Positions 13,922-63,243 are shown, numbered from the whole stretch's first letter. The stretch is 63,243 bases of DNA, filler included, from Hausera hauseri (GCA_046269625.1; 12 parts of 12 records of this genome joined end to end with filler, not necessarily neighbours in it); one strand, 5' to 3'. Made by a program: numbers and translations. Notes: generated from the letters alone by a model not told the origin.

Positions 13922-14462
13922 TCAGTTGGTATCGCTCTCAACTTTACATATCTTTTTTACTGACCAAACCGTCAGTTTTCCATCGATGTCAATTTCTACG
14001 ACTCTTATAATACCATCCTTTCCTGGGAATAATTGTCTGATGGTTCCGATTTGCCATTGGTTCCTTTTTGAGTCATTTTTTAATAACCAAACTTTGTCTC
14101 CAATATTGAATTCTATTGCTTTCATATTTTTTGTTTAGCCGATTCCGGTATATTATTATTATTTCTTCCCTCCATCTCGTCCAGTAATCGTTAGACAATT
14201 TCTGCATATATCTCCAACGTGCGACTGATGAACTTTGACTAGTACCATTAACTTCGGTATTAATCTTCCCATCATAACCGGGTATGATGAAATGATTTGA
14301 CGACAATATGATATCATCCTTGGTGTTCGTTACAGTTCTAGTAATGGGTCTGGAATTAACAATCCCTTCTACTATAATTACCACCGTCCACAATTCCTCT
14401 TCCGTTGTATTAGCATTTCCTAATATCTTATATATAGCTCTCTTAGTGGCTTTTACCATGAT
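13922..14462 (-). mobile_element. BEL/Pao LTR retrotransposon integrase C-terminus (DUF5641-type)
   Basis: EEELWTVVIIVEGIVNSRPIT, RWRYMQKLSNDYWTRWREE and LFPGKDGIIRVVEI. One frameshift. Confidence 0.9.
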
Positions 14463-14570
14463 NNNNNNNNNNNNNNNNNNNNNNNNNNNNNNNNNNNNNN
14501 NNNNNNTTAATTAATTAANNNNNNNNNNNNNNNNNNNNNNNNNNNNNNNNNNNNNNNNNNNNTGACATGT

Positions 14571-15808
14571 AATGACATGTAATCTACAGAAAGAAAGTTC
14601 TGTCTTTCTCCTGTCTTTTGTATGAAAAGAGTTTTTAAAACAAGTGGAATTACCTTTTTCTGATAGAATACATGTAAGGCACGAAAGATGATTTCATGGA
14701 AGGCTGCACATTTGCAGATACAAAGCTGCATCCGTATTCTAGGGGATACCATTGATATGTCTGAAATAATCAGTGATTCATTCATTTAATTGGGATACAC
14801 AACGCATGACTTTTTGCATTTTTTTCTCAGGAACCATGTTTTGTGGCCTCAAGCTGTTTTTGTATGTGCTTATTCAGTGTAAATGATTCGCTTCCATAAA
14901 ACAGGTCATGTGTTGTATAACTCTGTGGGGCCGTCCTCTTAGTGTCCAGTGTCAAAGGGTTCTTACAATGGATATCTTTAATTATTTTTTTGACACGTTG
15001 TCTTAGCTTGGGCTATCCTGCTTGTCTCCTCAGTAATGCCATCCGTCTGATTTATAATTGTTCAAAATAATTAAATTTATTTGCTTCCTTAAGTTTTGTT
15101 CCTTCTAGTTTTATTGTGGAGTTTATCTGGCTGCCGTGCACTGCAATCAAAAGGACATATATTGGAAAACTGTACCAACTACAGACGAACGCACTGACCA
15201 TATGAATTAATGCGACAAAATTACTCGTTAGATTATATGAACAGCAACTAGCAGCAAAGTTTATACAAGAGACAGTTTTACTGACATAAGGTGTATCAAG
15301 CGAACGAAGTAAACAAGGCAACAAATAGAATAAGAAAAAATAGGAAGCGAAAGAAATTAAAGTATCTATGACTGTCATACAATTTGAAGTGATGGTGGTT
15401 CGTCGTCAACTTATCCCAGTGACTTTGTGCCTGCAGTCATAACAACCACCTGAGTAGACACCCCTAGCATCTTTCTCGAACTTGGCCACACAGTTAAGGT
15501 CACCAGTAAGATTTTCACGTTTCAAAATGGTCCCTAGAATACGGATGCAACTTTGTATCTGCAAATGTGCAGGCTTTCATGAAATGCTTTCGTGCTTTAC
15601 ATGTATTCTATCAGAAAAAGGTAATTCCACTTGTTTTAAAAACTCTTTTCATACAAAAGACCGGATAAAGAAAGAACTTCCCTTTTGTAGATTATATGTC
15701 ATTGGCCATTTCATGTTCTCAGACAGTATCAAAAACAAAGAAGGAGTGATGACCAACGTTGGATGTTTGAGTTTCTGTCATTACCGAGACTTTCAATCCG
15801 TTCTTTAA
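14571..15808. mobile_element. Non-autonomous DNA transposon with long inverted repeats, possibly Kolobok-like
   Basis: ~180-bp inverted arms at 14571-14753 and 15526-15703. The right side runs on to ...CT|TTAA at 15805-15808. The left end is cut by the contig edge. Confidence 0.55.
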
Positions 15809-15852
15809 GGGTTTTCACGTTCGACTGACTTGGCATTGTCAGGGTTGAACTC

Positions 15853-16036
15853 TCCTGATCTGCTGCGCGACCCACGCAGACGCCCAAGAGAAAATGAACA
15901 GACTCCAAACTTATTCTAGTCAACTAGGCCTACAGGTCAACGCAGAGAAGACGAAAATTATCAATCTAACGGATATGCCTAACGACATCTTACTACACAA
16001 CACTGCCCTTGAAAAAGTAAACACTTTTACTTATTT
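15853..16036 (+). mobile_element. Non-LTR retrotransposon (RTE/L2-like) reverse transcriptase fragment
   Basis: HADAQEKMNRLQTYSSQLGLQVNAEKTKII...LEKVNTFTY matches the GLxxNxxKTK...LExVxxFxY motifs. Confidence 0.75.
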
Positions 16037-16506
16037 TTAATGATCATAGAAACTATGTTGCATCATTATTCCACTCCATTTGATGACTCAAGTTTAATGT
16101 TATGACAGTGATAAGTGTATGTATACTTCTGACCAGCACTGTGTTTCAAACCTTTAAGCTTTAAATAAAGGCGAAACCAACACAAGAAATTGGAAAATGT
16201 CTTACCTAACAACCATAACATGTTGGCAGAAAAAGTACATAAAAAACTTTTCTGTATGTGATTAAAGTCAAAAAACACAGCTATGTTTTGTGTAATTACT
16301 AAGTATATTTAGATTTTCTTTTTATCAGAGATAAATATGCCAGCAGGATTGTTAGAGTCTGTTGCTAAGAGTGAAAAACAATCTTCTGCCCTTTGTCAAC
16401 AAGAGTGGGTCTGTGCCTGTTAATTAAACAAATCCCAGAGTTATTCCCTGCATTCTCACTGCAGCTGTTTAACACAAACGCCATCTAATCATTTCTGTCT
16501 CTTCAG

Positions 16507-16966
16507 GCACAACTCGTTCAAAAGACACCTCCCCAGGCAGATGCAGGTGGGCAGCTTAGATCTGGGAAACGACTATGTGGTGGACAGGGAAGAAAAGCCA
16601 ACCAGCCTGGGTCGCATCCAGCCAGAGCTCTACCAGCAGAAGACCTCGGAGTCAGAGGAATCGTCCAAGAATGGCGGCGAAAAAAACTGCGGCAGGATTA
16701 ACTTCTCGCTCAAATACGACTACGAAAATGAGGCGTTGCTTGTCAATATTCTCAGGGCCATTGACCTACCTGCCAAGGACTTGTGTGGCACCTCTGACCC
16801 TTATGTGAAGGTCTACCTGCTGCCTGACCGCAAGAAGTTCCAGACGCGCGTCCACCGGAAGACGCTCAATCCCACGTTCAGCGAAAGCTTCCAGTTTCCT
16901 GTGCCTTACGACGAGCTGCCCGTCAGGAAGCTACACATGAGCGTCTTTGACTTTGACAGATTTTCC
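16507..16966 (+). CDS. SYT6: Vertebrate (teleost-like) synaptotagmin-6 exon (linker + C2A), truncated at the 3' end
   Basis: Acceptor ttctgtctcttcag, then [12 protein letters not shown]...[12 protein letters not shown]...[12 protein letters not shown]...[24 protein letters not shown]...VFDFDRFS. This closely matches vertebrate SYT6. Codons are GC3-rich and there are no stops. Confidence 0.85.
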
Positions 16967-18703
16967 AATTCATTGATCACTATGTCTTATTAAATCAAAT
17001 ATTCAGTACTAATCAATCACCCATAAGGGGAACTACAACAATGAACCGTTTGTGATTTATGAGCATGTCAATGTCGTTCAAGTAATCGATATAACAATTC
17101 ATATCCAGAACAAGAAATAAGGGTCTGGTTTCTAATGCAACAAATCTTTGAGCTATCTCATGATCAAGTAACGATTGGCGACACATTTCGTACCGCCTAT
17201 TTTTCTCTTCTTTAATTTTTATGTTTGCTCGCTGTATCTTCACTTGAGCAATACTTTTCTTGTGGTCTCTTTCTTCGTCTTTAGCTTGCTCCGTGATGTC
17301 GGCCCAAGATGCTTGTTCATTTAGTGAATCACCAATACCACAATGAGTTGTATTTGTCTCCAGAATATGCATCTTCAATTGTAAAGCGAGATCTTCGAAA
17401 TTTCGAACATCATCCAAATCCCCTTCATCGTTACCCTTTGTGAAATCATCTTGTAGTCTTTCAGATCCCTCTTTAACAACAGTTGAAATATGAGTTCATG
17501 TTTTAATATCGTAATCCAGAAGAGATGGAGTAATTCCACAGAGAAAATCCCCGAGAAGCGAAATTTTCTCCAAATGTATCCTGATAACAATTCCCTCTTC
17601 TGACCATTAGTTAAATAACTCTATAGCCCATTGACACGATAAAGCAAAGAAATCAAGAGTCATACGCGAGGCATTGTCCTAATGAAATGATCTGAGAGCA
17701 TAATTGTTGATAGAAGACAATTGTTGGCTGACACGGTCCATAATGTACATATTTATAATAAGCATGTGACAAAGTCGGTAGGAATTCAAAAGATAAGGTT
17801 GATGGCAAAGCAATGCCCAAAATTCTTGAGGCATTGTTGAGCATGTTTCTGGGAAATTTTCCATATCTATATTCCTAAACAATTTGTCCTGGCTATGGAG
17901 AAAAGATTTGTTCAGTTCTATTAATGGCATACCAAAATGGTCTTCCGTAATCTGTTTTTCACACCTTAATCTTCCATCTTCCGTACCATCAAATGTTGCC
18001 AATATATCAGTATCATCATCGTCCGTAACTTTCTTCTCTTTGGATTCATCATCTGGATGGATCCACGTTTCAACGCAACCCTTTTTTCAATTTTCATTGG
18101 CAATATTTTGTTTCTTTTTCTTTCTCTTCAGGAATTCCTTGTTTCTTTAAAATTTCGTCTACTTTCCGACGAGCTTCCTCAAAAGGAAAGGAAAAACTTT
18201 GAGATGCTGTAGGAAATGGGTTACTGGCATCTAGTGTTCTCGTATAGTAGTATAAGGCATCTAAATGCCGATTAGAGTAAACAGAAATCACAGCAAGTTG
18301 GTTATAAGGACGTCCGTCTTTTGGAACAAATAATTAAGCTTTCAAATACCATATTCGAGCTTTAGAATGATCATTTGTGTTGTTAATAATCTCAGAATAC
18401 CGAGCAAGATCTCCGAGAAATAAAAGCAATTTTTGAGCACTCAAATAAACTAGTTTTCGCGTCCGAGAAAGTGTTTCAGGGGGTGCACGACGACTATCGA
18501 AAATAGCCTGCAAATCAACGTTGAAAATCTTTGACATTTCTTTGTACAAATGGATAAAATATTCTTCACCATTTCGAATGATACTCTGACCGTGACTGAC
18601 AATGTCCTGTTTAATTTTCACCAAATCATCTTTTTTATTTTGTGCCAGACTAGAACAACAGAAAAAACGGGAAACGTCAATAACATAGCAAGTGTAATTA
18701 CGC
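16951..18703 (-). pseudogene. SMG6: SMG6/EST1A fragment (EST1 domain to PIN-domain start) with stops, frameshifts and a 41-nt intron
   Basis: LFLGDLARYSE, WYLKA*LFVPKDGRPYNQLAV and ALYYYTRTL...NPFPTA. PIN start RPLFLVLDMNCYIDYL...VVPLM^[10 protein letters not shown], with a GT-AG intron at 17020-16980. Confidence 0.88.
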
Positions 18704-21430: not shown

Positions 21431-21487
21431 ATACGATCGCACCAAGTTCAAAGCAAAAACTTACATATTATTTAAATATTCTTTGAA

Positions 21488-22015
21488 TTTCATGTTGCCA
21501 AAAATTTAGATGAAAGAAATGTTGTCGAATACCAGGTTCTAGCTGGTGGTCATTATGATGTCGATATTGTTATTAAAGATCCGGAAAACAATATTTTATA
21601 CAATCGAGAACGTAAACAGTACGAATCACATTCGTTTGTTCCATTGATAAATGGCATTCACCAAATCTGCTTCAGCAATGAATTTTCATCATTAACTCAC
21701 AAAACGGTTTATCTTGAATGGCAAACAGGTGACAGACAGAATTTGGGACTTGAGAAATCAAAATCTACAGCATTGACTTTCATGGAAACTAGTGCCATCA
21801 ATCTCCATGAAGCTCTAAATAGCGTCGAAGAAGAACAGACTCATATCCGCTTAAGGGAATCTTTCGGACGTTATTATGCCAAAGAATTAAATTCTCTAGT
21901 GACATACTGGTCTGTGGGACAGGCAATATTGACATTAGCTGTGGGTATTGGACAAGTGTTCATCTTGAAAAGCCTTTTCCATGACAAAAGACCAATTGCT
22001 TCTAGTTTTAAATGA
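21488..22015 (+). CDS. TMED7: 5'-truncated p24-gamma family protein (TMED7/TMED3-like), followed by a 3'UTR-like region
   Basis: EYQVLAGGHYDVDIVIKDP, CFSNEFSSLTHKTVY, ALTFMETSAINLHEAL, RLRESFGR and VTYWSVGQ...GQVFILKSLF. ATTAAA near 22312. Confidence 0.75.
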   Translation, partial: FHVAKNLDERNVVEYQVLAGGHYDVDIVIKDPENNILYNRERKQYESHSFVPLINGIHQICFSNEFSSLTHKTVYLEWQTGDRQNLGLEKSKSTALTFMETSAINLHEALNSVEEEQTHIRLRESFGRYYAKELNSLVTYWSVGQAILTLAVGIGQVFILKSLFHDKRPIASSFK

Positions 22016-31446: not shown

Positions 31447-31548
31447 NNNNNNNNNNNNNNNNNNNNNNNNNNNNNNNNNNNNNNNNNNNNTTAATTAATT
31501 AANNNNNNNNNNNNNNNNNNNNNNNNNNNNNNNNNNNNNNNNNNNNGA

Positions 31549-34500
31549 TGCTACAACGCCGTCAAAGCGAGGCTTTTCAAAACTTATGACGACTTTGTTG
31601 ATAATGCGACTACAAAAAGGGAAACATCTAGCAATATCAGCTCGCACGAGAGGAAACCAAGGGCGTGCAGGAGTAATTTAAAAGTGCCGGGAAATAATTG
31701 TGATCAACGGTGTCTACAGGACAACCCTTCGGATTCTAAGCCACAGCTCCACCAGAGTGTAGGCTGTCGAAAATCAAAGAGTTCAAGTGACCTCGATTCA
31801 AAGTCTAATTTCAAAGACAACAATAGCTATCAAATAAAAAGTCAGGAAGGCACCATCGTTTGCGAAGGTAGTCCTCTGGATATACTGGACACTCTAGTTG
31901 ATGACAAAATCAAAATGCTTCTTGATAAAGTAATTGAGAAATGGTCCCCGAACAAGCATAAAAGTTCTCGACTACCAGAAACCAAAACCAACAACGAAAG
32001 TGCGGACAGAAATGACATGTCGAGGCACTACGGCTCGTCCTTGTCCTCGGAAGAACACCACAGCATGTCAAGTCAGTCAGTTAGTTCCGAAGCTATGACT
32101 GAAAAATCACTGACTGAAGAGAGCGTTGTTATCTTATCTGTACCGACCGGTTCCGGCTGCGCGCGCAAGAAAAAGATATCTGTTGAACTGACAAAACAAC
32201 AAAATGAAAAACTGATGGATTGGATCAGCAGGTCGGTGCCTGAAATGTCTAGATTAAAGCCGGATCCTAGTCAACATAAAAATAAATATATTGTGTCGAT
32301 TAAGAGGAAGAGAGTGGTCTCTGAAACCAGAGGTCGCTGCAAGAATAAACGGAGATTCAGAGAAGAGGCGAAGTCGTCCGACAGTGCTAATATTACGAAC
32401 AGTGCCAATAACTGCTGTGAAAAGGGGGCATCGAGAAACAGCAATGACGCGAAGACTTCCATGTCTGGGTGTCGCTGGCCACTCATTTCTTTCACTTCGA
32501 AGCTGCAAAACTCTCCGAGCCGAAATACGTGTCAATCACCAGTCTTAAGAAATGCTTCTAGAACTTCCAGGTCACGTCGTCAATGTCCGACACGAAAACC
32601 TAGTTCAGAAAACAGGAGGAGGTCATCAAATAAACATGTCTCCACTCCGCAACAAAAACGTAGTAAGAAACGCGCTAGTTCTACTCCAGGAAGGAGAACA
32701 GCCAAGCGCAGGGTAAATCAAAATACATCTCCTTTGAAATCCCCAAAGTCGAGAAGTGGCGAGACGGAATCGACCTTGAACAATAAATATGAAGACAAAG
32801 AAATATCTGATAAATGCGCCATGAAAACTGTTAATTCGTTTGCAAGCAGCGGGATCTCCAGAATCGCAAGAGCCCTGAACAACTTTCATAAGCCCGAGTG
32901 CAATCAAATCCGCGTGCACCACGATGCACCATGTAGTGCAACTCCACTTGGACACTGTGACTCGGTTATGAGTGAAGCGAAACTCCGTTGTAGTGTGGGT
33001 AATACCGAACACCTTAAATGGCATGCTGCACCAACGGAAAATGAGGAAGATAGCCTTGCTGGATGTGACGATTTCGAAACCTCTTTTCTGACGCCAATAA
33101 AAGAGGAATCTCACTCCTGTGGAAACAACAGCTCTGACAAGTCCAGGTCAGATTTCGAAGACTTCGTTAAGAAATGTAGAAGAAAACTGTTGGGAATAAG
33201 GGAAGAAGAGTCAATCTGGCACAAGGACAGCCGTTGTGTATCCAATACTGCAAACAGCCACTCATGTTCTCATCACCGAGCGACATCGACTTCAGAGGAT
33301 CGTGACACGCTGGAGGACTCCGATTTAGCCGTTAATAGGGCAGGCTGCTACGTAAGAAGGCATCAGGACAACTGCTGCGTCCATCATGAAGAGAATGCTG
33401 AAAACGTTACGCTGGAGCCCAGGTTAATGAATAACAAGCACCACCAACATGTCTTGTTATATTTGCAGCACGTCGGCCCCTACAAGTCGGCATTTCTTCG
33501 TAGTGAGATGAATGATTCAGCCCGGCCCGTAAAAATATCGTCGCGCAAGAATGAACATGACCTTTTAAGGCTGTATGCCACAGGAGGCAACATAAATAAC
33601 TACCTCTGTAGCTCAAGAGGTAGCCTAACACCTGGGTGGCCATCCAGAAAAAACATCTTGGACTTTAACTGGAGGAAAAGCAACCAGGACCGAGTGTTGG
33701 CACCACCAGACACGTCAGTCTACACCAGATCTGGCGACAGCTACCTCCAGCCCAGACATTTAAGTGCGCCGGAGAGCCAGACCAAACTATTTTCCTCTGT
33801 TTATTCACCGTTCCGGTCTAATTACGGGGATGCGTATCGAAAATGCGTGTCACCACAATTCACTGATTACTCTGAAGTGACCAACAAAGTGAATATCTAC
33901 AAGAACCTTCCTAGGGACGACAGCAAATGCTTGAAATTTACAACAAGCAGGTGGTATTCGGCTGATGCAATCGATATGGGGGTAGGTCAGCATCATGACC
34001 TAATTAGGAGAAATTGGAATGAAAGTGCCAACAACGGAAGCGATGGATCTTCACCGGGTGAGTCCAGCGGAAATGATGAAGCTGAGATAAGAGATGGCGC
34101 CGAAAGAAGTGAGTACCATAGGATGGGCCAACTAAAGGCCAAGCTTCAGGCCGGGGACACGCCATCTGCCTCAAATGACCACTCTGAGAAGGATAAGCCG
34201 CACAGGGCAGCCCGTCTTGGTCATATGACTCAGGACCAGTATTTTAAACAGGTCCAGTACGTTCCCGTGGATGATCCCCACTGTCTGTGTCGCGAGCACG
34301 CTTGCATGTCATACGATTATGGACATCAGAATTACCACATGGCTAGAGTATCGAACTTTGCCGCCAGAAATATAAACGCTAGCGGGAATATGTTTGGCCG
34401 CGGACTGCAGATCAGCGAAGAGCGCATGTCTGTCATGCCGGAACACGACGGCGACAGCGATGAAGAATTTACTTCTGCCACTGAAGAGCTCCCACGATAC

Positions 34501-35811
34501 TCATCTGGTTGTAAAAAAAGGGCGAGGTATAACAGAAACAGCAGCCAGGAAATTGATGATACCTGCAACCACCCTGACTCTATGAGTTATTACATGGGCG
34601 ATGGGCCTTCTGGGCAATTTGATAACTTCGAGGGCATACCTAAAGAGGACATGTTGATTAGCTTATCGCCCGTTGATGGCGATCAAATGATGTACTGTTC
34701 CCATCGTCAGAAGAATAACGCATGTCATAGATCGTCATCAGAGGCGGCTGGGCAGGCAGCATCTACTGGTATGAACAAGCAGTGCAGAAGCGAAGCCGGC
34801 ATTGTCCACCAGCTTGACAAGAACCACATCCTACCCGGGCGCTCGTGTTTCGGCCAGGGAGATATTCTCAACAAGAGAGCCTTTACTCAGTGGTACGTGG
34901 AAGAAGGTGAGAAGTCCCAGCACGGTCAGCGGCGGTCATCGATCAACCCGGCGCCTGGTGAAAAGTGCTCACACAGAGAGCTTTGGGTCACCCCATCAGA
35001 ACACTGCGAAAGCTCCCCAGACGAAGGGGAGCAGGATGACGAGGAGGAGGATAATGATTGTGAAGACGATGAAGATGAAAACGACGACGAGGAAGAGGAT
35101 GGGGAGGAGGTGGATGACGACGACGAGGAGGGAGAGGACGACGAAGAAAACGAAGATGAGGAAGATGAGGAGGAGGAAGTCAATCGTGACATGGCGGTTT
35201 TTGATAGTGGCGAAGATCAGCGTCTTCTTCAGAAGAAACCAATTTGCCTCGATCACCTCAAGGAGAAGAACGCTCAAAACAACTACCAACACGAGAAACC
35301 GCAGGACATGAACGAATCTAAAATTATGGGCAAACGAATCGCGGATATGGATTCCGTAGGCAAGAGACCCACGCGGGTGAGGCCAGTTACCCAAACGAAA
35401 CGATATTCAACGGCAAATAAGCAAGGCTACCACCAAAGCACCGGAGACCACCTGAATAAGCAAAAACTTACCGCGGCCCACGATAAGAATATGCACATCA
35501 AGGCCACAGGAGGTCACCAGCATAAATTCTCTTTGGAGCAAATAAAAGTTCCGGCCATTGAGAAAGAACGCGTTCGTTTCGCCTGCGATGAAAACGGCGA
35601 CTGGGCTGAAATCGGTCGCGGGAGCTACGGTTGCGTCTATCTGGGTCTCTTGGATGGTGTCATCGAAGTGGCCATTAAGGATTTCTACGAGTCCAGCTCG
35701 TGGGATTTAGTCATTCACGAAGCACGGATGCTCATGTTCCTACAAGACACTGGGATCACGCCCAAGTTTTATGGTCTCAGGAGGCGGTTTGACATTAGCA
35801 AACAGCCTAGA
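31549..35811 (+). CDS. Large protein open at both ends: long disordered Ser/Arg-rich region, acidic tract, then a protein kinase N-lobe
   Basis: More than 1400 stop-free codons. Asp/Glu tract at about 35020-35180. IGRGSYGCVY (Gly-rich loop), VAIK, and alphaC Glu in LVIHEARML at the contig end. Confidence 0.85.
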
Positions 35812-36799
35812 NNNNNNNNNNNNNNNNNNNNNNNNNNNNNNNNNNNNNNNNNNNNTTAATTAATTAANNNNNNNNNNNNNNNNNNNNNNNNNNNNNNNNN
35901 NNNNNNNNNNNTTTTTCCAGCATTGTGAACAGACGAACGACGTTTAGTTCAGTGGAGCTCGGCTGTTGGAATTGTATTTACAGGATGTACTTAATAGTCG
36001 CACGGCCAATCAGGAACAGAGTATCACAGTTATTTGCAAAAACCCAGTAGCTATGCACACATGCCCGACGGATTAACAAAGAGCCCCATTGTTGACATCG
36101 GTTTATACACATCAGAAATAACCCATAACAAAACGTCACTTACTATCCATGTGGCCCGCAGTAGAAATGCTAACAATGTGATCGTTATTGCTTTCATCAA
36201 AGTATTTACCCGATTTAAGGCACCATTACCTTGGCCGGCTGACAAACAAACGCTACTCAGAGGCAAGGAGTTATTCACCCCGCGTAAACAACAACCAAGG
36301 AAGCCCCCGCCCGATCTGAGAAACGGTTCTAATATGGGCAATATGGCAAAATACGCACAAAATAAAAATACTGATGAAGTAACATTGCATGCGGGGAATT
36401 AGGTCACCCCAAAGTTTAGGATTCGCCGCGGCGAGGCGGAAGTCCCGGCCGCACATCCTGTGCCATTGGGTCAGATGGCACCGTTCGCTGCCGCCCCGCA
36501 ATACACCCCTGGCTTCACGACCCCTCCTTATTCCCTCTTCTTTTTTCAATTAATACACACATCCATACAACCGCATTAACACACTTAAACACTGCAACCA
36601 TCTACAACATCATCTCCACTTTTCGTCGCTCAACTGACTTTCACCTCACACACCACGGCTCCACGGTACCTCTCGTTGGAACCGTACAATCTTCTTCATC
36701 CTATATCTACCTTCACATACACTTCCGCATACATGGTGGCATGGATCCATCATCCACTATTAATACCACGGACAAACCCACCAAACCACCGTTCTGCAT

Positions 36800-36917
36800 T
36801 GTGGTGCCCACATCGACCGCCGCCCTCTGGCCCATTCGGTTGGCCACGGCCGGGCTTGCGCTGCCGACGCGTCGGGCACATAGGCGGGCCCCGATCTTCC
36901 GCCTTGAAGGTTGTACA
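36800..36917 (+). repeat. 118-bp GC-rich structured module, copy 2 (TGT...ACA)
   Basis: Same length and ends as copy 1. The MSH4 fragment starts within 5 nt of its right end. Confidence 0.85.
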
Positions 36918-36921
36918 ATTT

Positions 36922-37323
36922 CGACCGGAGTTAACCGATACATTGGGTTTGAAGTCATCGAGAAATCCTTTACATAATTGTTTGTCTAAACAGAAAATTG
37001 TGACTAATCATGTTTTTGCTTCTCCTCAATCGAACTTCATCATTGTATCAGGTGCTAAAATGAGCGAAAAATCTATCCATTTGCAGAAAATTCCACTCAT
37101 TTAGATCATCGTCCAAATTGGTCGTTTCGTTCCAGCGAAATATGCATTTTTGAAATTAACCGATCATATATTTACTAGAATCGGTGTCGACGATGACATT
37201 CAATCGAATTTCTCGAGTTTTACCATCGAAATGCGAGAAATTAATTACATAATAAACGCTGCTACAGATCATTGTCTTGCAATAATTAATGAATTAGGAA
37301 GATGAATAAGTATCAATGATTAG
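36922..37323 (+). pseudogene. MSH4: MutS homolog 4 ATPase-domain fragment
   Basis: RPELTDTLGLK...NFIIVSGAKMSEKS (decayed P-loop)...QIGRFVPA...DHIFTRIGVDDDIQSNFSSFTIEMREINYII...IINELGR*. Confidence 0.82.
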
Positions 37324-37430
37324 AATGTTTTTGTGTCGATTACATTGACCTCATTCGATTATTTTCATTCATGTGTCAGTATAATCTCATCCAGAGGGAA
37401 TGTAATATTAAACCGAATAACTGTTTTTCA

Positions 37431-37891
37431 GTCCCATCTCCTCCGTTGAACGTTCGACTAAATCAATTACGGCAAAACAGGAGCAGGGTAAAACGGTTTT
37501 TTTGGCGGATTTGGCTTGAGATGCACCGGAAAACGTTCATTGAACTATAATTACTTATCGTGTAGGACATCGATTGGTTGTACCGTCGAATCTCATCGAG
37601 GGTCCTAGACAACGGTATATTGCTCCGAAAGAGTATGTCACAAATGTGACGGTAACAAATTACTGTTCGACAATAAATGATGCTCTTGACTTTGGAAAAC
37701 TTTACGAATTTTCCATTTCCGCCATCAAAAACAATAATGATGTTGGAATTGACGCAAAGTACAATATACCGACTCGTGAAAGTGCTCCCGAAAACTATCC
37801 AGTATTTATTCAATTTACTGGTATCAACAGCAAATCTGTAAATGTTACCTGGCAGCCTTCTCTACCAGAATTTCACAATGGTGTTGTGTAG
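37431..37891 (+). pseudogene. Fibronectin type III domain fragment of a cell-surface receptor or adhesion protein
   Basis: PSPPLNVR; LDFGKLYEFSISAIKNN...TRESAPENYP...SKSVNVTWQP...HNGVV. Confidence 0.7.
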
Positions 37892-38450
37892 CATTATGAC
37901 CAAATTAATTCAATGGGATTAACAACGTTTTCCGTCTCCAGGAAATATTGAAACTTTGTACTCGTATTTTTACTCAATTAACTGCAATAACCAAACAATA
38001 CATACATTTATATAAACACAAAATGGGAACGTTCTCCAATAACTTTGAAAAGTTGGTTCGATACACGGGTACAACATTTTCGGATCATTTATCCAGATTT
38101 ATAGTGACCGTTCAAAAACTTGAAAGTATAACAATGTCCACCTCTCCGGAAATTAAATCCGGTGATTCGTCAAAAAAAAATTAACTCAAACCGAATTAAC
38201 TACCAAGAAAAAGAAGATGCAAACGAAAAGTCTTGACAATCAAATGGGGAAAACGAAAAAGGAATTAAAGTTAATTGCGGCATTAGTTTATGAAACGGAA
38301 CAATTTCAACGGTACCTAATTGAACAGCAGAAAATTTCTAAAGTCGACTTAATGTCACACGTAAAGAAATTTATCAGCCGAGATTTCCGAATCAATATGT
38401 CAGCATTGAAAGAAAGCCTTGAACAAAACATTCCTGTCAGTTTTATTTAG
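37892..38450 (+). pseudogene. FANCI: Fanconi anemia group I protein C-terminal fragment
   Basis: LCTRIFTQLTAITKQY, NNFEKLVRYTGT and LVYETEQFQRYLIEQQKISKVDLMSHVKKFISRDFRI parallel the FANCI C-terminus. Frameshifted. AATAAA near 38755. Confidence 0.75.
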
Positions 38451-39418
38451 AATATTTCGAGTTTCAGAGAAATTTCATGTTATCCGGCTATATTATTTAA
38501 TAATCGACGATTTTCAAAATAAAAACAATTCGCGCTAAGTAAATATTCAATAGAATCGCTAAAATCCTTTCAGTCATGAGTCGACCCAGATATAGTTAAT
38601 TCAAATCCCAGTGTCTTAAACGGCTGAAGTCAATTATTTTCAAATCGAGATACTACATATATTTGTACATTACTTTGCGTGTATAAAGCTTTTTTGAGAA
38701 AAACAAAATTTGTTTAAATAATGTAAAGTTATTTTCTTGAAGTTGTAAACTTTGAATAAAAATTGATTTTTGTCATTTTGATTTATTAACTGTTCAGTTG
38801 AAAATTTTACGTATTGAATCTACCATTTCAGTTCGATCTTCCTTCTACAAATTTTTCTGAACTTTAATTACTTTTCTTACTGAATCTTGGATCGGTCGTT
38901 CTACAAGCTCATTTTTGTGCATTCGCCTGCTATGTGATAATAAACTATATAATTTAGTGTCAGAAATAAATCATTGTTTATACAATCTTCCATTTCGTAC
39001 TCGTATAATGATGACTGTAAATATGGACAATAACAAAATAATCAGTTCTGCAATTATATTAAACAATAAATTCAGTAATATTCATAATATGAAACCGATG
39101 AATGCAAAATCTTTATCGAAATAAATTGCAATTCGTGTAATATTCCATCGTACGCGGATTTACAGTCGTTACAAGGGTTACAACAAGGTACTATCCCCAA
39201 TATTACCCCGTTGGATAAGGCAGAAGAATTCGTTTCGGGACAGGACGCTATTACGTCGTTAACAACGTCACCAGTGACAGTTGATGTCGTACCGGATACT
39301 CTAATGGATGACGGTGCGTGGCAGAATTTAACAATTGCGGATATTTTTTGGAATACACAATTAGTGCCAGATAACATTTTTTTCAACTGTCATTACAAAA
39401 CCATTGCCTTATAATTGC

Positions 39419-40431
39419 ATGCCGTCTGAAGTCGCTTTTATACATATCGGTCAGTTTGGTGTGAAGTGTGCCAGTGCACAGTGGGAATTATTATGTCTTG
39501 AACACACTATTAATCCAGATGGACTAAAACATTAACAGATAATGATTTAGCTGACGAACCTGATCGAACGGCAGTATTATTCCAACCAGTAAACCACTGT
39601 AAGTTGAATCCAAGAACGATACTTGTCTATTCAGAGTCCACATGCATAAACGATATTAAAACTGGTGCATATCGAAATATTTTTAGTGGAGAATCAATGA
39701 TTACTAATTGTAAAGATTTCGGTAACAATTTTGCGCCAGGAAGTCTCAATTCTAGTGTACGACTAATAAGATTGTTTCCACTGCGGCTATTTAAACTAGC
39801 TAAAATGACGCATAATTTGGATGCATTTATCGTCATTAACACTATGAGTGGTGGTACGGGATCTGGAGTTGGTGCGTTGATAATGCTGAAATTATCCTTT
39901 GATTACCCCGAAACAAACCAAATACAATTGGCATTATTTCTCAGCCCGATAATGTCTACGGCGATTGTTGAACCATATAATAGCGTATTCCGTAGTCATA
40001 CAACACTAGATACGTGTGATTTGTGTATACTTTTTGATAACGAAGCTCTTTATGATGTTTGTAAATATCTATTGTTCATGAATTCACCTAATTATCCTAA
40101 TCTCAATCGAATAATATCTCTAATGATTAGCTTATCTACAGCATCAGCGCGATTTGAAACAACGATGAATTCTGGTTTGAAAAAAATGCATACAAATTTA
40201 ATACCGTATCGAGGGATGCACCACGCAATAATGAGACATTCTCCAATTCTGCACGCAACACGAATTAAGTATGCCAGTCCATCGATCGAACAAATTGCAA
40301 AACGTGTCTCCTTGAAAGATCACCAAATGACTAAAACTGACTTAAATAAAGGGAAATTCATATTGATTGCTATGAACTATCGCGGTGCAGTTAAGCCTAG
40401 AGATGTCACGATGGCAATTCAGAAATGCTGA
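39419..40431 (+). pseudogene. Highly divergent alpha-tubulin
   Basis: [14 protein letters not shown]...[48 protein letters not shown] and YRGAVKPRDV. Frameshift near 39535 and an early stop. Confidence 0.85.
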
Positions 40432-42661
40432 GTAGCAANNNNNNNNNNNNNNNNNNNNNNNNNNNNNNNNNNNNNNNNNNNNTTAATTAATTAANNNNNN
40501 NNNNNNNNNNNNNNNNNNNNNNNNNNNNNNNNNNNNNNCAGGTCACCAAACAATACGGTATGCGGCAAACATTTCTCCCTCATATAACAAAATAACACCG
40601 CACAAAATTCTATTCACGACAGCAAAACCCAGTAGAAAATAACTAAGAACAATGTACCTTACGTGTACAAATTTCAGATTGAAACTATAAATAAACGCCC
40701 AAGATTATTATTAACTGATTCAAATCACATTTACGTCGTTTGAAATAATCAACGTATGACTCATAAATATGCTGAATTAATGTTCATTGCACCAACTTAG
40801 TTACCATACATAATTAAATACATGACAATCAAAAGAAACTGGTGACATGATATTAATCCTACGTTGGATTACATAATCTAACCTTACAAACATTATATAT
40901 TATTGGAGATAAGAATACTTTATTTGCAAGTCAACATATGAAATAGCCGGAAATCATAATAAATGTTTAATTCCAACTTAATTACGAGATGGATAAATTT
41001 ACATGTAAAATAAATGTGGATTTATTTGTCAATTAAAGGAAACTGTGCACTTTTTATCAACTTAACAAGTGATAAATTATTATCACAACAAAATGTACAT
41101 TAAAGTTTTGACTAAAATAAATGCAAATAGATATCAATGAAATTTCAGATTCTGATTATTGGCTTATTAACGTACGAAATAATTATTCAAATAATGGCCA
41201 TATATGAAAGGTTAAGTAATAGTAAAATCAGTATTGTACTGTAGACGAACAAACACCTAAGTAACAACAGTGTTTTCCAACACTAAAATGAAGTTTTCGT
41301 GTACAAACAATCACAAACTGCAAATTCATAATTTTATGTATGTCAGCGAAATAAAGCCAGAAAAATTGTATGACTCAGCCATTTATAAGGCAGAAAATTT
41401 GCAGAATGTATTTAATCTACGGTACTAAGGCTCTCAATGTACCTGAAAGTACATTATTTGTATCTAATTGCTGCCAACTAATTTTATACCAAATTAACGA
41501 CAACACGAATCTTACCAATTCTCTGTTAAATTTGTTTACCACAACTTTCAGTTATCGATAGCATCAATTTAACAGCATTCTTTTAAATCAAAAGTCGAAT
41601 TAAACTTCCGGTAAGTCGCATATGAATGGAGTATATTAGAAGTTCTGTTCAAATAACGTTTCAATAAGTGTTAATCTACCGAGACCAGCTTTACATGAGA
41701 GCGTATTAAAGTACATAAAATAATGCATTGCTTACCAACATAAAATATTAAACGGAAATCCTTGATAAGTAATACGGAAGAGTATGAAAATTAACAAAGC
41801 CATTAACTTTCAATGTTTTCATCTATAATTTACGAAAAGTGTAAATAAAAATTATATAAAAATTATAAAAAAGGCCAAATCATTTTAAGAAAAAAAGTGA
41901 AAATAATTACCACAAAAAATTCAAAATCGTTACTAAGTACACAAAAAATCAGTACATAAAATTATTGAATATTTAAACAAATTTTAATGTTTTCCGTTTG
42001 AAAAGAACCAATTTTTTTGTAATTTCATACTCATTTCACAATAACATTAAGTATAAATATATTTTAATTTCTTTTATGTTGGAATTGTGGGAAATTTAAT
42101 ATCGTAAAGGAGGTTCAAAAACTCCACGTGTAATTTACTCATCAACGTCCGATAAATTTTCAATGGACAAATATAAATACGCCGGCAATTCCGTTAAAAC
42201 TGAAATACAACATCTTAATATTCATACCAAAAAATCTTTACGAACAATTTTACCGATTCGCAAATATCTATTTTGTTTTCATTTCTATCCTCAATCAGTG
42301 TGTTATATGTTGACGTGCACAAATTATTTTTACAACAAAAGTTGCAAATCCTTTTACGTTGTTTTCAAATGCATAACAGTAATTCATATATAATGTTTTT
42401 ATTTTAGGTGGCTTTATAAAAAAGTTTTCCATATAATATTAACTTAGTGGTATTTCTAAATTCGAAACTTTCACATTATAGAATGTTAATCAGTATTGTA
42501 CAATCTTTTCCAACGTTGCAATTCAAAGTTCTTTTTGGAAATAGGATAACTTTCGAAATTGAATAATCAACTGCTAAACTTCAAATTAACTATGAACTAG
42601 CTAATACTATAAAACCAATCAATCGCTATGAACACCACACATCAAAAGAACGGGGGAGTAT

Positions 42662-43632
42662 TGTAAAGCTTTGCTTTACAAACAAAAAATAATAAGTGCA
42701 AAAAATAAACAAGTCGCGAATTCGCCCAAAAATATAGGTAACAAAATCTGGATTAAAACCTATTTGTTTAAATCTGCAGATGAGTAGAAGAGTTGAACTT
42801 TTCGAAATAGGGGAAATCCACAACTTCACCAATCCTTGTCGTTGACATCGTCATCGTTAGCCACAGACGCCACTGCAACATAGTCATCATTACCCATAAC
42901 AAATTGAATAAACGATCTACCGACATTACCCGATCTACTAGATGATTCAGCAATACTGATCATTGACGATGGCAATTACTGACATTACGACGAACCCATC
43001 ATTTATCAATTCGTTATGGAACTTGTCCATCGGCTCGACTACGTCACGTGATCTCCTCACAACTGACGAAAGCTCATCAGCACACGATTGCTGTCGGTCA
43101 TACCGTCATAAATACCTCTTCGTTTTCACATGGACAAACCTGTCAACAGTAATTTCCATCTTCGCTATCAGATATCAAATACAAATTCAATCGAATGGAT
43201 GCAGATATAAACGCAGATAATTTCCTGATCAATTTCTTTAATATTCATGTCATATTCATTTAGCTTTTCTGCAGATGGCCACACGCGACGCAAAAACGAA
43301 ACAACCAAACAGCGACAGCAGCAATCGTGAAGATGACAACGACAAATGAAATAAGGTTCACGCAAATGTTGTTTCAAAACAGACAAAACAACCTTAACCA
43401 AATACCACGTGGCGTCGAGGACGTCTCCGCCAACTTCTTACACGGTGTCGAGTTCAACTCCACCTAAACACGACGTCGAGATCACTTCGTCAACCTATAT
43501 TTTTTAAAATAAAACTTCTAATCGGAAGTTGTTGTTTCCCCACGTTTTCAATAGTTGTTTTATCGACTGCATTTTAGTAATTGTATTGTGCGACCTATAC
43601 AAGGCTTTTACCAAATACAAAAACCTCTAAAA
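42662..43632 (+). mobile_element. Putative LTR, preceded by a PPT and followed by a PBS
   Basis: aaaagaacgggggag (42644-42658) then TGT at 42662; TGGTGGCAGCG at 43633. No second LTR copy to confirm it. Confidence 0.4.
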
Positions 43633-43643
43633 TGGTGGCAGCG
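43633..43643 (+). promoter_or_regulatory. Primer-binding site complementary to the tRNA-Leu 3' end
   Basis: TGGTGGCAGCG directly upstream of a Gypsy gag. Confidence 0.65.
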
Positions 43644-43649
43644 AATACC

Positions 43650-44465
43650 GCACACACGTTCCTTTTGGACAGAACCATGGATATTCATCCGATTTCCATA
43701 TTATACACAGCCGTTGATAGCAATCCGGCTCAATACGGTTGAAATTAAACCGGTTAATACATGCATTAGTGCCATCGAAAACAATCCGGCCACACATGAT
43801 ACATAACTAAATGTGATCACATAACTACCGCTGACGACATTGTCAGCAAATTCAAATTTAATTAGATAATGACAACGCGTAATATCGAACAAGTGCCAAT
43901 ATATTCTAGTCCTAACACGCGTCAACACCGTCAAATCGGAATACAAACTTGATTATATAATCCGTTCCACAATAGCACACACACCAAGCAACAGACGGGG
44001 AATATGAAACCGTCTGCTCTGCTTCACAAGTTACGCTCAGACTTGAGCAATGCTGAGTTGGACCTCCACACCAACCAGCACATACTACGGCGCTACTTCC
44101 TAAGTAGTTTGCCCAATCAAATTCAAGCGGCATTGGTGCTATTACCGCCCGATACCACTTTGGACGATATGGCATCAAAAGCCGACAAAATATACGAGTG
44201 CACTAAAGGCACCGTAGAATCCGCACTGACGGAAAGTATCCATTCCGTCACAACGACCCAGAAAAATCGGCTGGTCACCATTATCGCCGCAATGCAGGCA
44301 CTTATAACGCACGAAAATCCGCCTGCCAGAAACAAACCGTAATCTCGGCGCCAATCCCCCAATAGAAAGAAAGGCAAATTTTCCAACATTTGTCATTTCC
44401 ACACACAATTTGGCGAATCCGCCTATAAATGCTACCACGGTTGTCAATTTGATAAGCCATCTAAA
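43650..44465 (+). mobile_element. Decayed Ty3/Gypsy gag (DUF7041-type), with no pol following
   Basis: GNMKPSALLHKLR...FLSSLPNQIQAAL...LDDMASKADKIYE; zinc knuckle ICHFHTQFGESAYKCYHGCQF. Confidence 0.85.
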
Positions 44466-44954
44466 AACAAAAATGCAAGACACTTGCATTTATCACAACC
44501 ACTTTGGTCCAGATGCAAAAGTCTGTCGACCCGGCTGCAAATTTCACAAGCCGTGAAAAAACTAAATGGGCCCAGATGACCAACGACACGTCGACTGGAA
44601 ACCAAATCACCACAACTGGAGTATACAAATAGCGAACGCATTGCGTACGCTATTTTCTCCCTCGAGGCGAAGTTACTACACTGCTACATCTCTAAACAAA
44701 ACTATGAGAAAAGTGATTCATTCCATATGGACACTTACGTAGCACATGACCCAACCCCGGTCCAAACTGAAACAAATATTGCCCCAACGCCCATACTTCA
44801 GGAAACGGAACGTACAAATATACGCAACCAAACCCCTGCGGCACCGGTATCGAGTCGCACCAGGAGTGCATCAAAGATACCTAGACTTCATTAAAACTCG
44901 ACAGGCCCGACAGAAAGAGTACCCGATTATATGCAGCATGCACGTCGCATCAAA

Positions 44955-45026
44955 GCATGTGGGGATCAAACCCACAGTGTCGAATTGACACTCGCTCATT
45001 CCGCTTTTAATAAGCGACGAACACGC
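44955..45026 (-). ncRNA. tRNA-like structured element, copy A
   Basis: Stems cgcttatt/aatgagcg and gtgtc/gacac, T-arm-like gtggg-tttgatc-cccac, closed by gcgtg/catgc. Confidence 0.4.
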
Positions 45027-45247
45027 CACAGACAACCAGGCGAAGCATTAGCAGCTCACTGAGAAGTCGAACAATTTTCGATTTTACACGGTTAAAACCG
45101 TTGTCCCACTACGAATTTGCATTGTGCACAACCCCTTTTTAATGCCATTTCGTCGCCAAGCGCTCAACACAAAACCCATCGACACGGTCTACCTCGATAC
45201 CATTTACTAAAATACCTGGTTGCACGCAGCGCAAACGCTGCACCAAA

Positions 45248-45327
45248 ACATGTGGGTATCGAACCCACAGTGCCGATAACGGCACTCACTCATGCCGTTT
45301 TTCATGGGCTGCGATTGCGCTCCATGC
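45248..45327 (-). ncRNA. tRNA-like structured element, copy B
   Basis: Closing stem gcatg/catgt, a D-like mini-stem, catg-aaaaacgg-catg, gtgccg/cggcac, and T-arm gtggg-TTCGAta-cccac. Confidence 0.45.
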
Positions 45328-46003
45328 AACCAAGCAACGTACAGATTAACTTGACTCAAGTGCCAAATCGACAAACACTATAGCACTACCAAAAAACGTG
45401 TCTTCCATGCATAGTCAAGAGCACAAAATGACATCTACCATGACGCATCAAACAAAGTCGCCGTATAATCTACCATACAAAGGTTCGAATCTGACACGGT
45501 TAGCAAGTTATTCCATAACCGTTGTCTCACTACGGAACTCACATGTGCCACAATACGATTGTGTTCGCATTTCGTTGTCAGATTTGACACAAAAACTCTA
45601 CCGAGAAGGCGAAACATTCAATCTCGATCTGAACACACGCGGAATTTCGCTTCCCAGATCGCCAAAACCAACCAAATCCATAATAAGAAAAATGAAGCGA
45701 ACAGGTGCCGGTATCAGGCCCTTGGAACTAATATGTGGTGCTTTAAGTAAAAAGGAATTCTCTGCCTGTCAGTCAGTCAACATTTTGAAAGAGAAAATGA
45801 GCGAAGCTATAGAAATGAATGCTCAGCATATTACTCAGATATCACAAATACTAGAATTCCTTAAATGTTATTATACAAAACTTAGTCAAGAAAATTAGAA
45901 GTATACATATGTAATAATCAATGATACCAGCTAATGTGCATATTAATTATGCAAAAAACTATTGGTACCACAATTTCTGCTCTCATCATGGACAAATTCT
46001 CAC

Positions 46004-46079
46004 CTTTTTCCATAGTTGGACACTAGTTTTTAGTGTTCTCAAATAGTGGTGATGAACTGCTCTGACGGCATTTACAGCT
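46004..46079 (-). CDS. Isolated 76-nt exon, possibly an SFI1-like centrin-binding repeat
   Basis: Flanked by tttctcttcag and gtgaga. It encodes AVNAVRAVHHHYLRTLKTSVQLWKK, close to the Ax7LLx3F/Lx2WK consensus. Confidence 0.3.
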
Positions 46080-47342
46080 CTGAAGAGAAATCAAAACAGC
46101 AGACATGTTAAGAGCAATGTATTTGTATATGTGAAATTTCTATTGTAATGAAGTCTTTCGTTTAGATCGTTTTCACATCATCAAGATCAATTTCACTTAC
46201 AAATATGGCAGTCTTTCTCTGTCACCATATACAACAGTAACTGTACAATTGCTAACCAAATACAAGGTCATGGATTTAATTCCCAGCAGTGGAGGGTTGA
46301 ATATCTTCAACCAAAATGGCTCAGAGACCTCACCTTACCTCAAAAACTGGGCACCAGTGAGAGCCTTTAGAAAAATAAGGTGGCCTCACTTGTTGTTGGT
46401 CAAGGAAAAAAATGGACACCAACTCTGCATTTCCCTATAAACATTTAGGCAAGACAGGGTAAGTTTAGTTTTATATAATTTCTTTGTAGTTAGGTTTGGG
46501 TTAAGTATATTTAGTTAGTCAGATCATCATCATTGCACACAGGGCAAGTCCAGAGGTGCTCTGAATATATCCATAACACACAACGGTAGACAATTCTGGT
46601 TTGCTGTTAGTTAGGGTTGAGTATATCCTTTGCTTCACCGATTCATGAAATTGACATTTCTGGAGAACTGACTATGTGTGCTCAATTTTCATTTTGTGGA
46701 ACAGTTGGTGCCTCAGCCTGCAGTGTACTGTTCTTAATAAGAGTCTTACAATTTAGTTGTTTGTCTAACTTGNNNNNNNNNNNNNNNNNNNNNNNNNNNN
46801 NNNNNNNNNNNNNNNNTTAATTAATTAANNNNNNNNNNNNNNNNNNNNNNNNNNNNNNNNNNNNNNNNNNNNAAGGTGTAAAAGTCCAATACACCATTAA
46901 ATCAATATATAGTGCACAAGTACGTGTGAACAATACATAGTGTTGAAAACTAACCCACTATTAAAAATGTGTTTTGTTTTAATGCATCAATTATTAAATA
47001 TACATAAATGTAGACAACACGTGTTGATATGGTTATATCTTTTATTATTTCAAAATGCCTATTCAAAATTGTGCTGTCAAATTGACAAATGCATAGAAAC
47101 AAAATGTTGTAGAATATTTAAAAATGATATATATTGCCGGAATTACCCTACTATATATTTCCTTACATGTATGTTTTTTTCTGCATCAATATCATATATT
47201 AGACATATATATTATGTATATATAGTAGAAATTCAAATCCAGAAAATCTATCAAAATGATCAATGGAAAAGTCTTAAAAGAAGCAAATGCTTTACAAAGT
47301 GGATAAGCCAATTCAGAAGAAGGAGAATCGAGATCTGATGCT

Positions 47343-59960: not shown

Positions 59961-60362
59961 CTGTTGCAAAACAGTTTGATGCAACTTTTGGGCTTTTAGC
60001 TGCCGATATTGTGTCCGTTGATTCGGATTTCCGAGGAGGATATTACATTTTCTGATAATTATCTTATTTCGCCGTTTGGATATAATCCATTGTTTTAGAT
60101 TATCAATTCTCCCGTTTCATGAGTACTAATTAATGGTTCTCGATTGTTAGTATGTGGTTCATATTCCTTGAATTTTCCCATACCGGTGATCTGATCTCTA
60201 TATTACGAGGTTATATCGAGAAATACAATATTCTGGAGTCATCCACGGGCTGTCGGCAACTCATTTTCCGTAAGGCTCCATAACGTTTCGTACCTTCGTA
60301 GCAGTCTTCTAAACTAATTGTCCTCTTAGATTTCTGTCTGGCATGAGCTCATTGATCGCTTG

Positions 60363-62388: not shown

Positions 62389-63243
62389 TTATGATTTGTT
62401 CCTCCGGCCACTACCATCCGTCATTGTCAAATTACGTAACATATCTTCGAGTTTATTATTATTACCGGCCTTTTTATCTCCTTCCTTATCGAATAACCTT
62501 GACCAATTTACTTCACAGGGTAGCTTCCTAGCCGCTCTTCGTGAAAAGCTTGTAGCTCTATTAATTTCGTTTTCTTGACTAGGATTTGTCTTGATGGCCA
62601 AGTATAGCAATACTTTTCTTAGCTCTTCTATTGTATTTTCCACCATGATTTTCTCGGCTACTGCTTCATCGATTAAGTTACTTTTTGATAGCTTAAAACG
62701 TAAACTTCTCGTCATTCTGACTGCACTAAATATCTCTTTCTCTTTATCGTCCAACGAGTCGCCTCGGAGGCTGGAATAATTTACGATTCGTATTAAATTC
62801 TTAATTAATTAACTCAGTTCTTCATTGTTTGTGCTAAAGGGAGGGATCGACATCTATCTCCATTCTTTAACAATTCTTCGTTATAGTCCACGTATTCTTG
62901 AATTTCCCTAGGCCTACCTCCGGGACGTCTCTGTTTCCGAACGGTTGTTGAACTGATACTCAGTGGCACTAAACTTTTGTCGAATTGTTCCTTATCTTCA
63001 TCTGTTTGTAAATACTCAAAATATATAGCAGCGTCTCGGACTCCGATGATTTGTCCTAAGCATTATTCTGTTTTAGCCTTCCGTGTGGCTTCTTTTTTAG
63101 TCTGCTCATCAGCTATTACTACTACTATTCGGTTTGTATCGTGGGATATAATCTCGACATCTATTAGTTGTTCTAATTCGTCTAGTATTCTCCCTCTAAA
63201 ATATAATCTATAGTTTAGCTCGTTTATTTATTAACCATTCTCT
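62389..63243 (-). pseudogene. Unknown decayed ORF whose 3' part is in frame with the env-like gene
   Basis: ORF 62754-62389 is separated from the env signal peptide by one TAA. Further interrupted coding sequence runs to the window end. Confidence 0.5.

Follow-up and report, generated by a model that had tools for sequence, protein, structure and literature searches.

The assembly of Hausera hauseri (868.6 Mb in 909,086 contigs with a mean of 956 bases; G000 below) contains a contig in which a fish-type SYT6 exon runs into an SMG6 sequence. This contig, C738099, is complete with 4,141 bases and occupies 14563-18703 of the window, that is, the whole stretch of 63,243 nucleotides which was analysed and along which all positions are counted. 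The SYT6/SMG6 junction is very probably an artefact and not a biological feature. It is probably a misjoin by the assembler, through which fish, flatworm and LINE-rich (long interspersed nuclear element) DNA from a shallowly sequenced mixture would have become one mosaic. Free DNA of fish and of other animals is present in the sample and similar joints occur elsewhere in the assembly, so that a stitching error is likelier than the passage of a gene from fish to worm. At least four pieces make up the contig: non-fish DNA rich in LINEs, another fish locus, SYT6 itself, and a pseudogene of SMG6. The zones in which they meet measure 21, 21 and 15-22 bases. The three joints lie inside 951 bases, and one of them links fish DNA to fish DNA. 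The joint between SYT6 and SMG6 is without function, as the exon is cut and the SMG6 copy was already dead.

Fish DNA and Its Borders

The contig was compared with four (X1-X4) of 24 listed sequencing runs, each taken as its assembled contigs, with X2-X4 taken to be fish-type; loci in G000 carry L-numbers. The poeciliid-type SYT6 exon (16507-16966, plus strand) codes for the linker and most of the C2A domain, and is undamaged but cut mid-exon. It is open throughout, with a GC content at third codon positions (GC3) of 0.73 vs. 0.30-0.35 in SMG6, and the splice acceptor ends at 16506. A C2 domain was detected, and the protein was 98% identical over 154 amino acids to SYT6 of Xiphophorus maculatus (P0001) and at most 92% to the remaining listed fishes, which together assign the exon to SYT6. 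It is preceded by a genuine SYT6 intron end with its acceptor (16124-16506, plus strand), since a single contig in each fish-type run spans 16124-16966, with 20-24 differences and three gaps. This fish piece, intron included, shows no decay (approximately 97% identity to its fish relatives) and no drift toward the composition of the recipient. The match to all three fish-type runs is lost at 16966. Beyond this base, X2 and X3 continue with the normal exon, whose codons spell RHDMIGEVVL as P0001 does; the piece from X4 terminates there. In the contig, the truncated exon reads on for nine codons into the antisense strand of SMG6 and then meets a stop.

The preliminary description of this DNA had reported an undamaged, GC3-rich SYT6 exon with its acceptor, ending at FDRFS, and this was confirmed. 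It had also taken the upstream DNA as intron-like, which holds for 16124-16506 and fails for 14563-16015: the match to the fish contigs that carry 16124-16966 is lost at 16124, 16016-16144 belongs to another fish contig, and LINE pieces lie in 14805-16020. As the SYT6 contigs leave at 16124 and the second fish locus starts at 16016, the fish share of the contig is 951 bases, and not 2.4 kb.

This second fish locus, locus B, covers 129 bases (16016-16144) and lies in X2-X4 on a different contig from SYT6 (record 12 of X2, record 17 of X3 and, from 16025, record 25 of X4), with 3-4 differences; each of these three contigs has a loose end at 16144. Joint 2, between locus B and the SYT6 intron, is thus a word of 21 bases (16124-16144) common to two separate fish contigs, one of which ends at 16144 while the other begins at 16124, in three out of three fish-type runs.

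Joint 3, between SYT6 and SMG6, lies at 16945-16966. Its overlap was measured against L002, a second SMG6 copy in G000 that is a paralog 85-91% alike, and comprised 15 exact bases (16952-16966), or 20 alike out of 22 when a 2-base gap in L002 is bridged. A pattern search of G000 for the native continuation of the SMG6 copy in the window returned C738099 only. L002 runs through the zone and on with its own SMG6 coding sequence, which bears out the earlier claim that a shared word links fish DNA with DNA of an invertebrate; the overlap of about 16 nucleotides that had been proposed exists, its length being revised to the values above. For two ends of 1 kb, the probability of an exact match of at least 15 bases is 0.002, and of at least 19 bases 9e-6, and the joint 3 overlap is beyond chance for local ends.

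Joint 1 (16016-16036) links a LINE to locus B. Five bases are exact and 17 out of 21 are alike, and the contig keeps the fish letters; three copies of the LINE showed four, four and six differences (17/21, 17/21 and 15/21 alike). The X2 and X3 contigs match from 16016 onward and carry other letters ahead of that base. No further copy within two mismatches of the joint 1 30-mer was found in G000.

The SMG6 Pseudogene

On the minus strand, 16952-18703 carries a flatworm SMG6 with its EST1 and EST1_DNA_bind regions, identified by Pfam and by flatworm alignments, and the putative start of the PIN region. The EST1 part was 43-50% identical in amino acids to platyhelminth SMG6 (P0280, P0281, P0283, and P0285), and the presence of both domains is that of SMG6 (EST1A). 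In the PIN region, no Pfam match was obtained on 17013-17495; the flatworm SMG6 alignment reaches 17022, and the remainder was removed by the joint. A GT-AG intron of 41 bases (17020-16980) stands ahead of the last piece. The reading frame is not intact, with four in-frame stops in the aligned parts (18336-18334, 17681-17679, 17609-17607, and 17498-17496), a frameshift near 18090-18140, where there is no GT donor, and an internal deletion near 17580. The identification of SMG6 on the minus strand in the preliminary description is therefore upheld, and what it called a divergent gene is a pseudogene. An altered genetic code was considered as the cause of the stops and rejected, because TAA, TAG, and TGA all occur, together with the frameshift, and because two of the stop positions are occupied by sense codons in L002 and L026.

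L026 is an intact-looking SMG6 copy in G000, whose best named matches are monogenean, tapeworm and fluke SMG6. Beside it, at least ten dispersed SMG6 fragments were seen (L002, L025-L033), several of which lack short introns and one of which has lost a large internal part. A second, distinct SMG6-like PIN exon lies in strongly CpG-poor DNA (0.27) at L021 (G000:C421515) and probably comes from another animal of the mix.

The Left Flank

DNA left of the fish pieces is rich in decayed repeats and has a CpG observed/expected ratio of 0.60, vs. 0.90 on the SMG6 side. An inverted repeat, which is not SYT6 DNA, has its left arm at 14571-14744 (plus strand) and its right arm at 15532-15703 (minus strand); the arms pair over 117 and 54 nucleotides that are 93-94% complementary, and there is one relative in G000, at 84-86%. 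A decayed LINE fragment at 14805-15134 (minus strand) is multi-copy in G000 (22 of 43 matches, at 73-76% identity), and its copies translate to reverse-transcriptase C-terminal peptides, the reading of which suggests an RTE-like element. At 15193-15340 (plus strand) lies the remnant of a further LINE family, a decayed 3' end with relatives in G000. Among the Atlas clusters nearest to the frame of one copy, L068, those at ranks 1 and 18 occur most often in Mollusca, with Arthropoda at rank 3, a weak hint that this LINE may be snail-derived and the left flank from a third animal. The LINE that meets the fish DNA (15865-16020, plus strand; 16 of 43 matches, at 85-97%) is a 5'-truncated reverse-transcriptase fragment, whose 3' side is cut by that DNA. 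Its copies L005-L008 translate through the reverse-transcriptase region, and it differs from three copies by 9-12 bases out of 156.

Free DNA of Several Animals in the Sample

A search of G000 for COX1 gave 15 matches from 19 candidates. There were six full-length types, 68-76% alike, and a seventh in flatworm code; further matches were partly bacterial or unplaced fragments. The seventh type lies on a contig of 13,994 bases, with copies at 89-95%, some of which contain stops. Its best named matches are Vorticeros, Bdellocephala and Bipalium (67-70%), and it clusters with them in a quick tree, the reference set of which comprised no snail, spider, fish or neodermatan. A vertebrate-code COX1 lies on its own mitogenome contig of 16,908 bases and best matches mammalian COX1. 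One type groups with an isopod and another among insects, mostly hemipterans; the remaining ones we presume, from the look of their peptides, to be two snails and an arachnid. Overall, at least seven animal COX1 types were seen at L034-L047, several on contigs of 10-17 kb. L047 itself is a second vertebrate-type COX1 fragment, 87% identical to the first, which may represent a second fish or a nuclear copy.

Nuclear fish DNA was found as well. Two contigs carry RAG1 matches, which cover 194 of the 653 positions of the profile, two carry MHC II beta, and other contigs carry exons that we take to be SYT9-like and SYT3-like, together with an exon whose peptide is the same as that of the next SYT6 exon. 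RAG2 gave no match among four candidates, with controls insensitive for this family, so that this is not read as absence. Both donors are thus present as free DNA in the sample, the fish by its mitogenome, RAG1, MHC II beta and SYT exons, the flatworm by its COX1 and SMG6 copies.

Triclads and prolecithophorans are mostly free-living. The nearness of the flatworm COX1 to triclads and a prolecithophoran therefore gives no support to the fish as a host, as had been proposed from the window itself, and prey or cross-sample DNA fits equally well. Fish DNA in a flatworm extract is probably of the latter kinds, and the gut contents of a predator or scavenger, or carry-over between samples, explain the mix of animals. 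Low-depth pieces of non-fish repeats were conversely seen in X2 and X4 (window 14980-16036 and 17611-17667; L089:895-1186), with an SMG6-like piece in X4 also. Carry-over in both directions between the samples may be the cause, or else the presence of a related worm in these fish samples.

One of the 24 listed runs, probably the source of the contig, holds at least half of its words, and no RNA run among them does. In X1, this probable source run, six of the eight listed pieces are identical to the contig. Its cover has holes at 16092-16369, at 16926-17064 and over the fish piece of the L089 locus described below, and also at 15536-15674, where no joint is known, and the holes were consequently not used as evidence. 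Depth in X1 was 2.5-3.2 for SYT6 pieces, 2.8-6.6 for SMG6-side pieces and 3.7-4.6 for the left flank. These ranges overlap, contig depth is not copy number, and a half depth would also be compatible with an insertion in one allele.

Similar Joints Elsewhere in the Assembly

At L089 (G000:C223410), fish-type runs match exactly positions 429-804, a 376-base piece of livebearer GART, and a multi-copy element matches from 786, which gives an overlap of 19 bases, with zero to two differences in five element copies aligned from 786. Long overlaps are therefore a recurring trait of G000, in the SYT6 contig and at L089. Teleost RAG1 is not known to have an intron in the region matched on L111; there, the match begins at profile position 546, right after an in-frame stop and with a multi-copy repeat upstream, the matches of which stop approximately 75 bases before RAG1, so that the length of an overlap cannot be measured. 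Both RAG1 scraps, on L111 and L112 (G000:C75289 and C116201), were seen in mosaic-looking contigs, L112 starting AT-rich and CpG-rich and ending GC-rich. The assembly is fragmented and thin, with recurring joints (three here, one measured at L089, and the cut RAG1 on L111).

Origin of the Joints

The longest match expected by chance is approximately 10 bases for two ends of 1 kb, and approximately 19.6 bases for 100 positions against a pool of 1.2 Gb. Overlaps of 19-21 bases are hence at chance level in a gigabase pool, which points to a process that matches everything against everything, and not to local DNA repair. Beyond the pieces, borders, shared words and free fish DNA that were observed, we infer a path of branch clipping in the assembler. 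Words of approximately 19-22 bases, common to unrelated sequences by chance or through repeats, would serve as stitching points: the reads of a low-depth fish fragment would end just beyond the shared word and those of the other genome would start just ahead of it, and once the two dead-end branches had been clipped, a single false path would survive. Such joins arose in a toy graph model, run on three random genomes at depths of 5, 1.5 and 4 with scaled word sizes and tip clipping, and devoid of repeats, errors and a real assembler. In it, 0.6-7.9% of low-depth island ends were joined, with overlaps at the word size k in 221 of 307 cases; at this level of simplification, the model demonstrates that the process is possible, and not its rate. 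According to PMC4585024, assemblers using words of 19-23 bases likewise yield cross-species chimeric contigs from simulated mixes. That situation resembles the present one in the mixed DNA, the cross-species contigs and the short words (CLC used 19-23, while SPAdes and MEGAHIT started from 21), and differs from it in that viral metagenomes were simulated, whereas the donors here are animals and one joint is imperfect. Chimeric sequences are also treated as a class by FCS-GX (PMC10898089).

Several observations weigh against a misjoin of this type. The exact shared word amounts to 21 bases at joint 2, 19 at L089, 15-22 at joint 3 (via the paralog) and 5 at joint 1 (17/21 alike). A strict word of k = 21 was tried and fits joint 2, but not the 19 bases of L089, and no such word could be seen at joint 1; the proposal was widened to a short shared word. 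The five exact bases of joint 1, with its 4-6 mismatches in 21, lend no support to an exact-word join there, and the 19 bases of L089 exclude a single fixed word size of 21 unless the element copy concerned differs from the copies aligned. The exact overlap at joint 3, given as 15-22 bases, depends on a paralog which is 85-91% alike. At every mismatch within the joint zones, the fish letter is the one retained in the contig, which is what polymerase extension of a mis-annealed fish strand would produce. Non-fish DNA flanks the fish DNA on both sides, as in an insertion; at L089, too, the fish piece has a left border at 429, with 1-428 as its left neighbour. Lastly, in the toy model at k = 21 and free of repeats, three successive joins were rare; long contigs would nonetheless be enriched for such joins.

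Part of this evidence suits a chimera formed in the tube, in which, during amplification, the 3' ends of broken fish strands would have paired with other templates and been extended, the products then being assembled. Fish letters are retained at every joint-zone mismatch, pairing is perfect at the would-be fish 3' end, and joint 1 is imperfect and lies on a high-copy repeat; furthermore, priming sites in multiple displacement amplification (MDA) extend to 21 bases and tolerate mismatches (PMC1855051). We nevertheless consider this origin unlikely. Chimeras made by phi29 polymerase in MDA share with our joints their position at complementary 3' ends, with up to 21 bases (PMC1855051), but their overlaps peak at 6 bases, are mostly of 5-8 and join neighbouring parts of one chromosome (PMC4595205). 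For distant segments, two or more paired bases occur in only 28-35%; the rate of MDA joints is one per 10-22 kb (PMC1855051). Here, by contrast, three joints fall within 951 bases, and most overlaps reach at least 19 and link different loci or species. The overlaps of 15-22, 21 and 19 bases are not the short ones of MDA, joint 1 alone having a 5-base exact core, and joints 1, 3 and L089 link DNA of different organisms instead of the mostly inverted neighbours of one genome. Tolerant merging of ends, or late scaffolding, would also account for the imperfect joint 1. This variant cannot be told apart here from an assembler misjoin at a short shared word and would be an artefact as well; together with a reverse transfer, in which fish DNA would have gained invertebrate repeats and an SMG6 piece, it appears very improbable. 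The few low-depth non-fish repeat pieces in X2 and X4 favour such a reverse transfer, but a living fish would hardly have SYT6 cut mid-exon beside three unrelated pieces, and relatives at 97% identity continue normally at 16016, 16124, 16144 and 16966.

Real capture, in which strand invasion at long microhomologies would have placed fish DNA from food in the flatworm genome, would agree with overlaps that far exceed chance for local ends and with non-fish DNA on both sides of the fish DNA, here and at L089. Its flanks, however, do not match: a cut LINE in CpG-poor DNA (0.60) stands on the left and a cut SMG6 (0.90) on the right, where L002 continues coding, so that they do not form one native locus that an insertion could have interrupted. 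The insert is itself a fusion of two fish loci at a 21-base word, and fish DNA beyond the insert is free in the sample. The fish piece is also free of decay, as a very recent event would be too. A like claim, from salmonid to schistosome, was withdrawn as contamination, according to PMC13155389. That case is similar in its near-identical fish DNA in flatworm data, first read as transfer, and different in that it concerned a transposon-like sequence in an expressed-sequence-tag library, whereas a single-copy exon in a genomic contig is concerned here. We give capture hardly any credence. Of the two alternatives offered in the preliminary description, chimera is thus favoured and capture is not, given the free fish mitogenome, RAG1, MHC II beta and SYT exons and the six other COX1 types; nor do the two leave an identical signature, as had been stated, since the length of the overlaps and their recurrence favour an artefact.

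Other Features of the Window

Ordinary invertebrate genes accompany the contig in the window, with CFAP74 fragments at 10395-14462 and a TMED3/7-like frame at 21476-22015, whose best matches, near 50% across many phyla, are uninformative on the taxon. A divergent tubulin lies at 39514-40431. The stretch 4621-10294 is probably another mosaic, with a 327-codon frame that weakly matches a phage head-closure protein (PHROG 578, E 0.0065); beyond this frame, the DNA turns CpG-poor and then very AT-rich. The single stretches 40539-46772 and 35912-40438 contain sudden jumps in GC (0.26 to 0.46 and 0.48 to 0.35) and in CpG (1.3 to 0.17), as may be expected from further joints. A long degenerate satellite with a 4-base period and open frames on several strands fills 1-4520, and a stop-free frame of 1,421 codons at 31547-35811 is devoid of Pfam matches and ends, by reading, with a kinase-like start. 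A broken element at 48743-51507 matches endonuclease VII and protein-primed DNA polymerase B, and 57493-63243 contains a retroelement that combines RT RNase H with a fusion glycoprotein of Monjiviricetes type, the latter interrupted by a stop near 61229. Rfam gave zero matches across the whole window.

Implications

It would take a predatory flatworm that repeatedly integrates the DNA of eaten fish at look-alike sites of 19-22 bases located anywhere in its own genome (SYT6 here, GART at L089) for these joints to be biological, and we regard this as extremely improbable. Were it true, an animal genome would be receiving prey genes, introns included, with no transposon to carry them, and this would be a direct and recent transfer of single-copy DNA from a vertebrate to an invertebrate, with the joining signature intact, in a class of claims that has repeatedly failed. 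As an artefact, the contig indicates that contigs of the Hausera hauseri assembly can be mosaics of several species, and read support is therefore required first for any piece that appears captured or fused in this assembly, particularly for pieces of fish DNA and for joints with overlaps of 19-22 bases.

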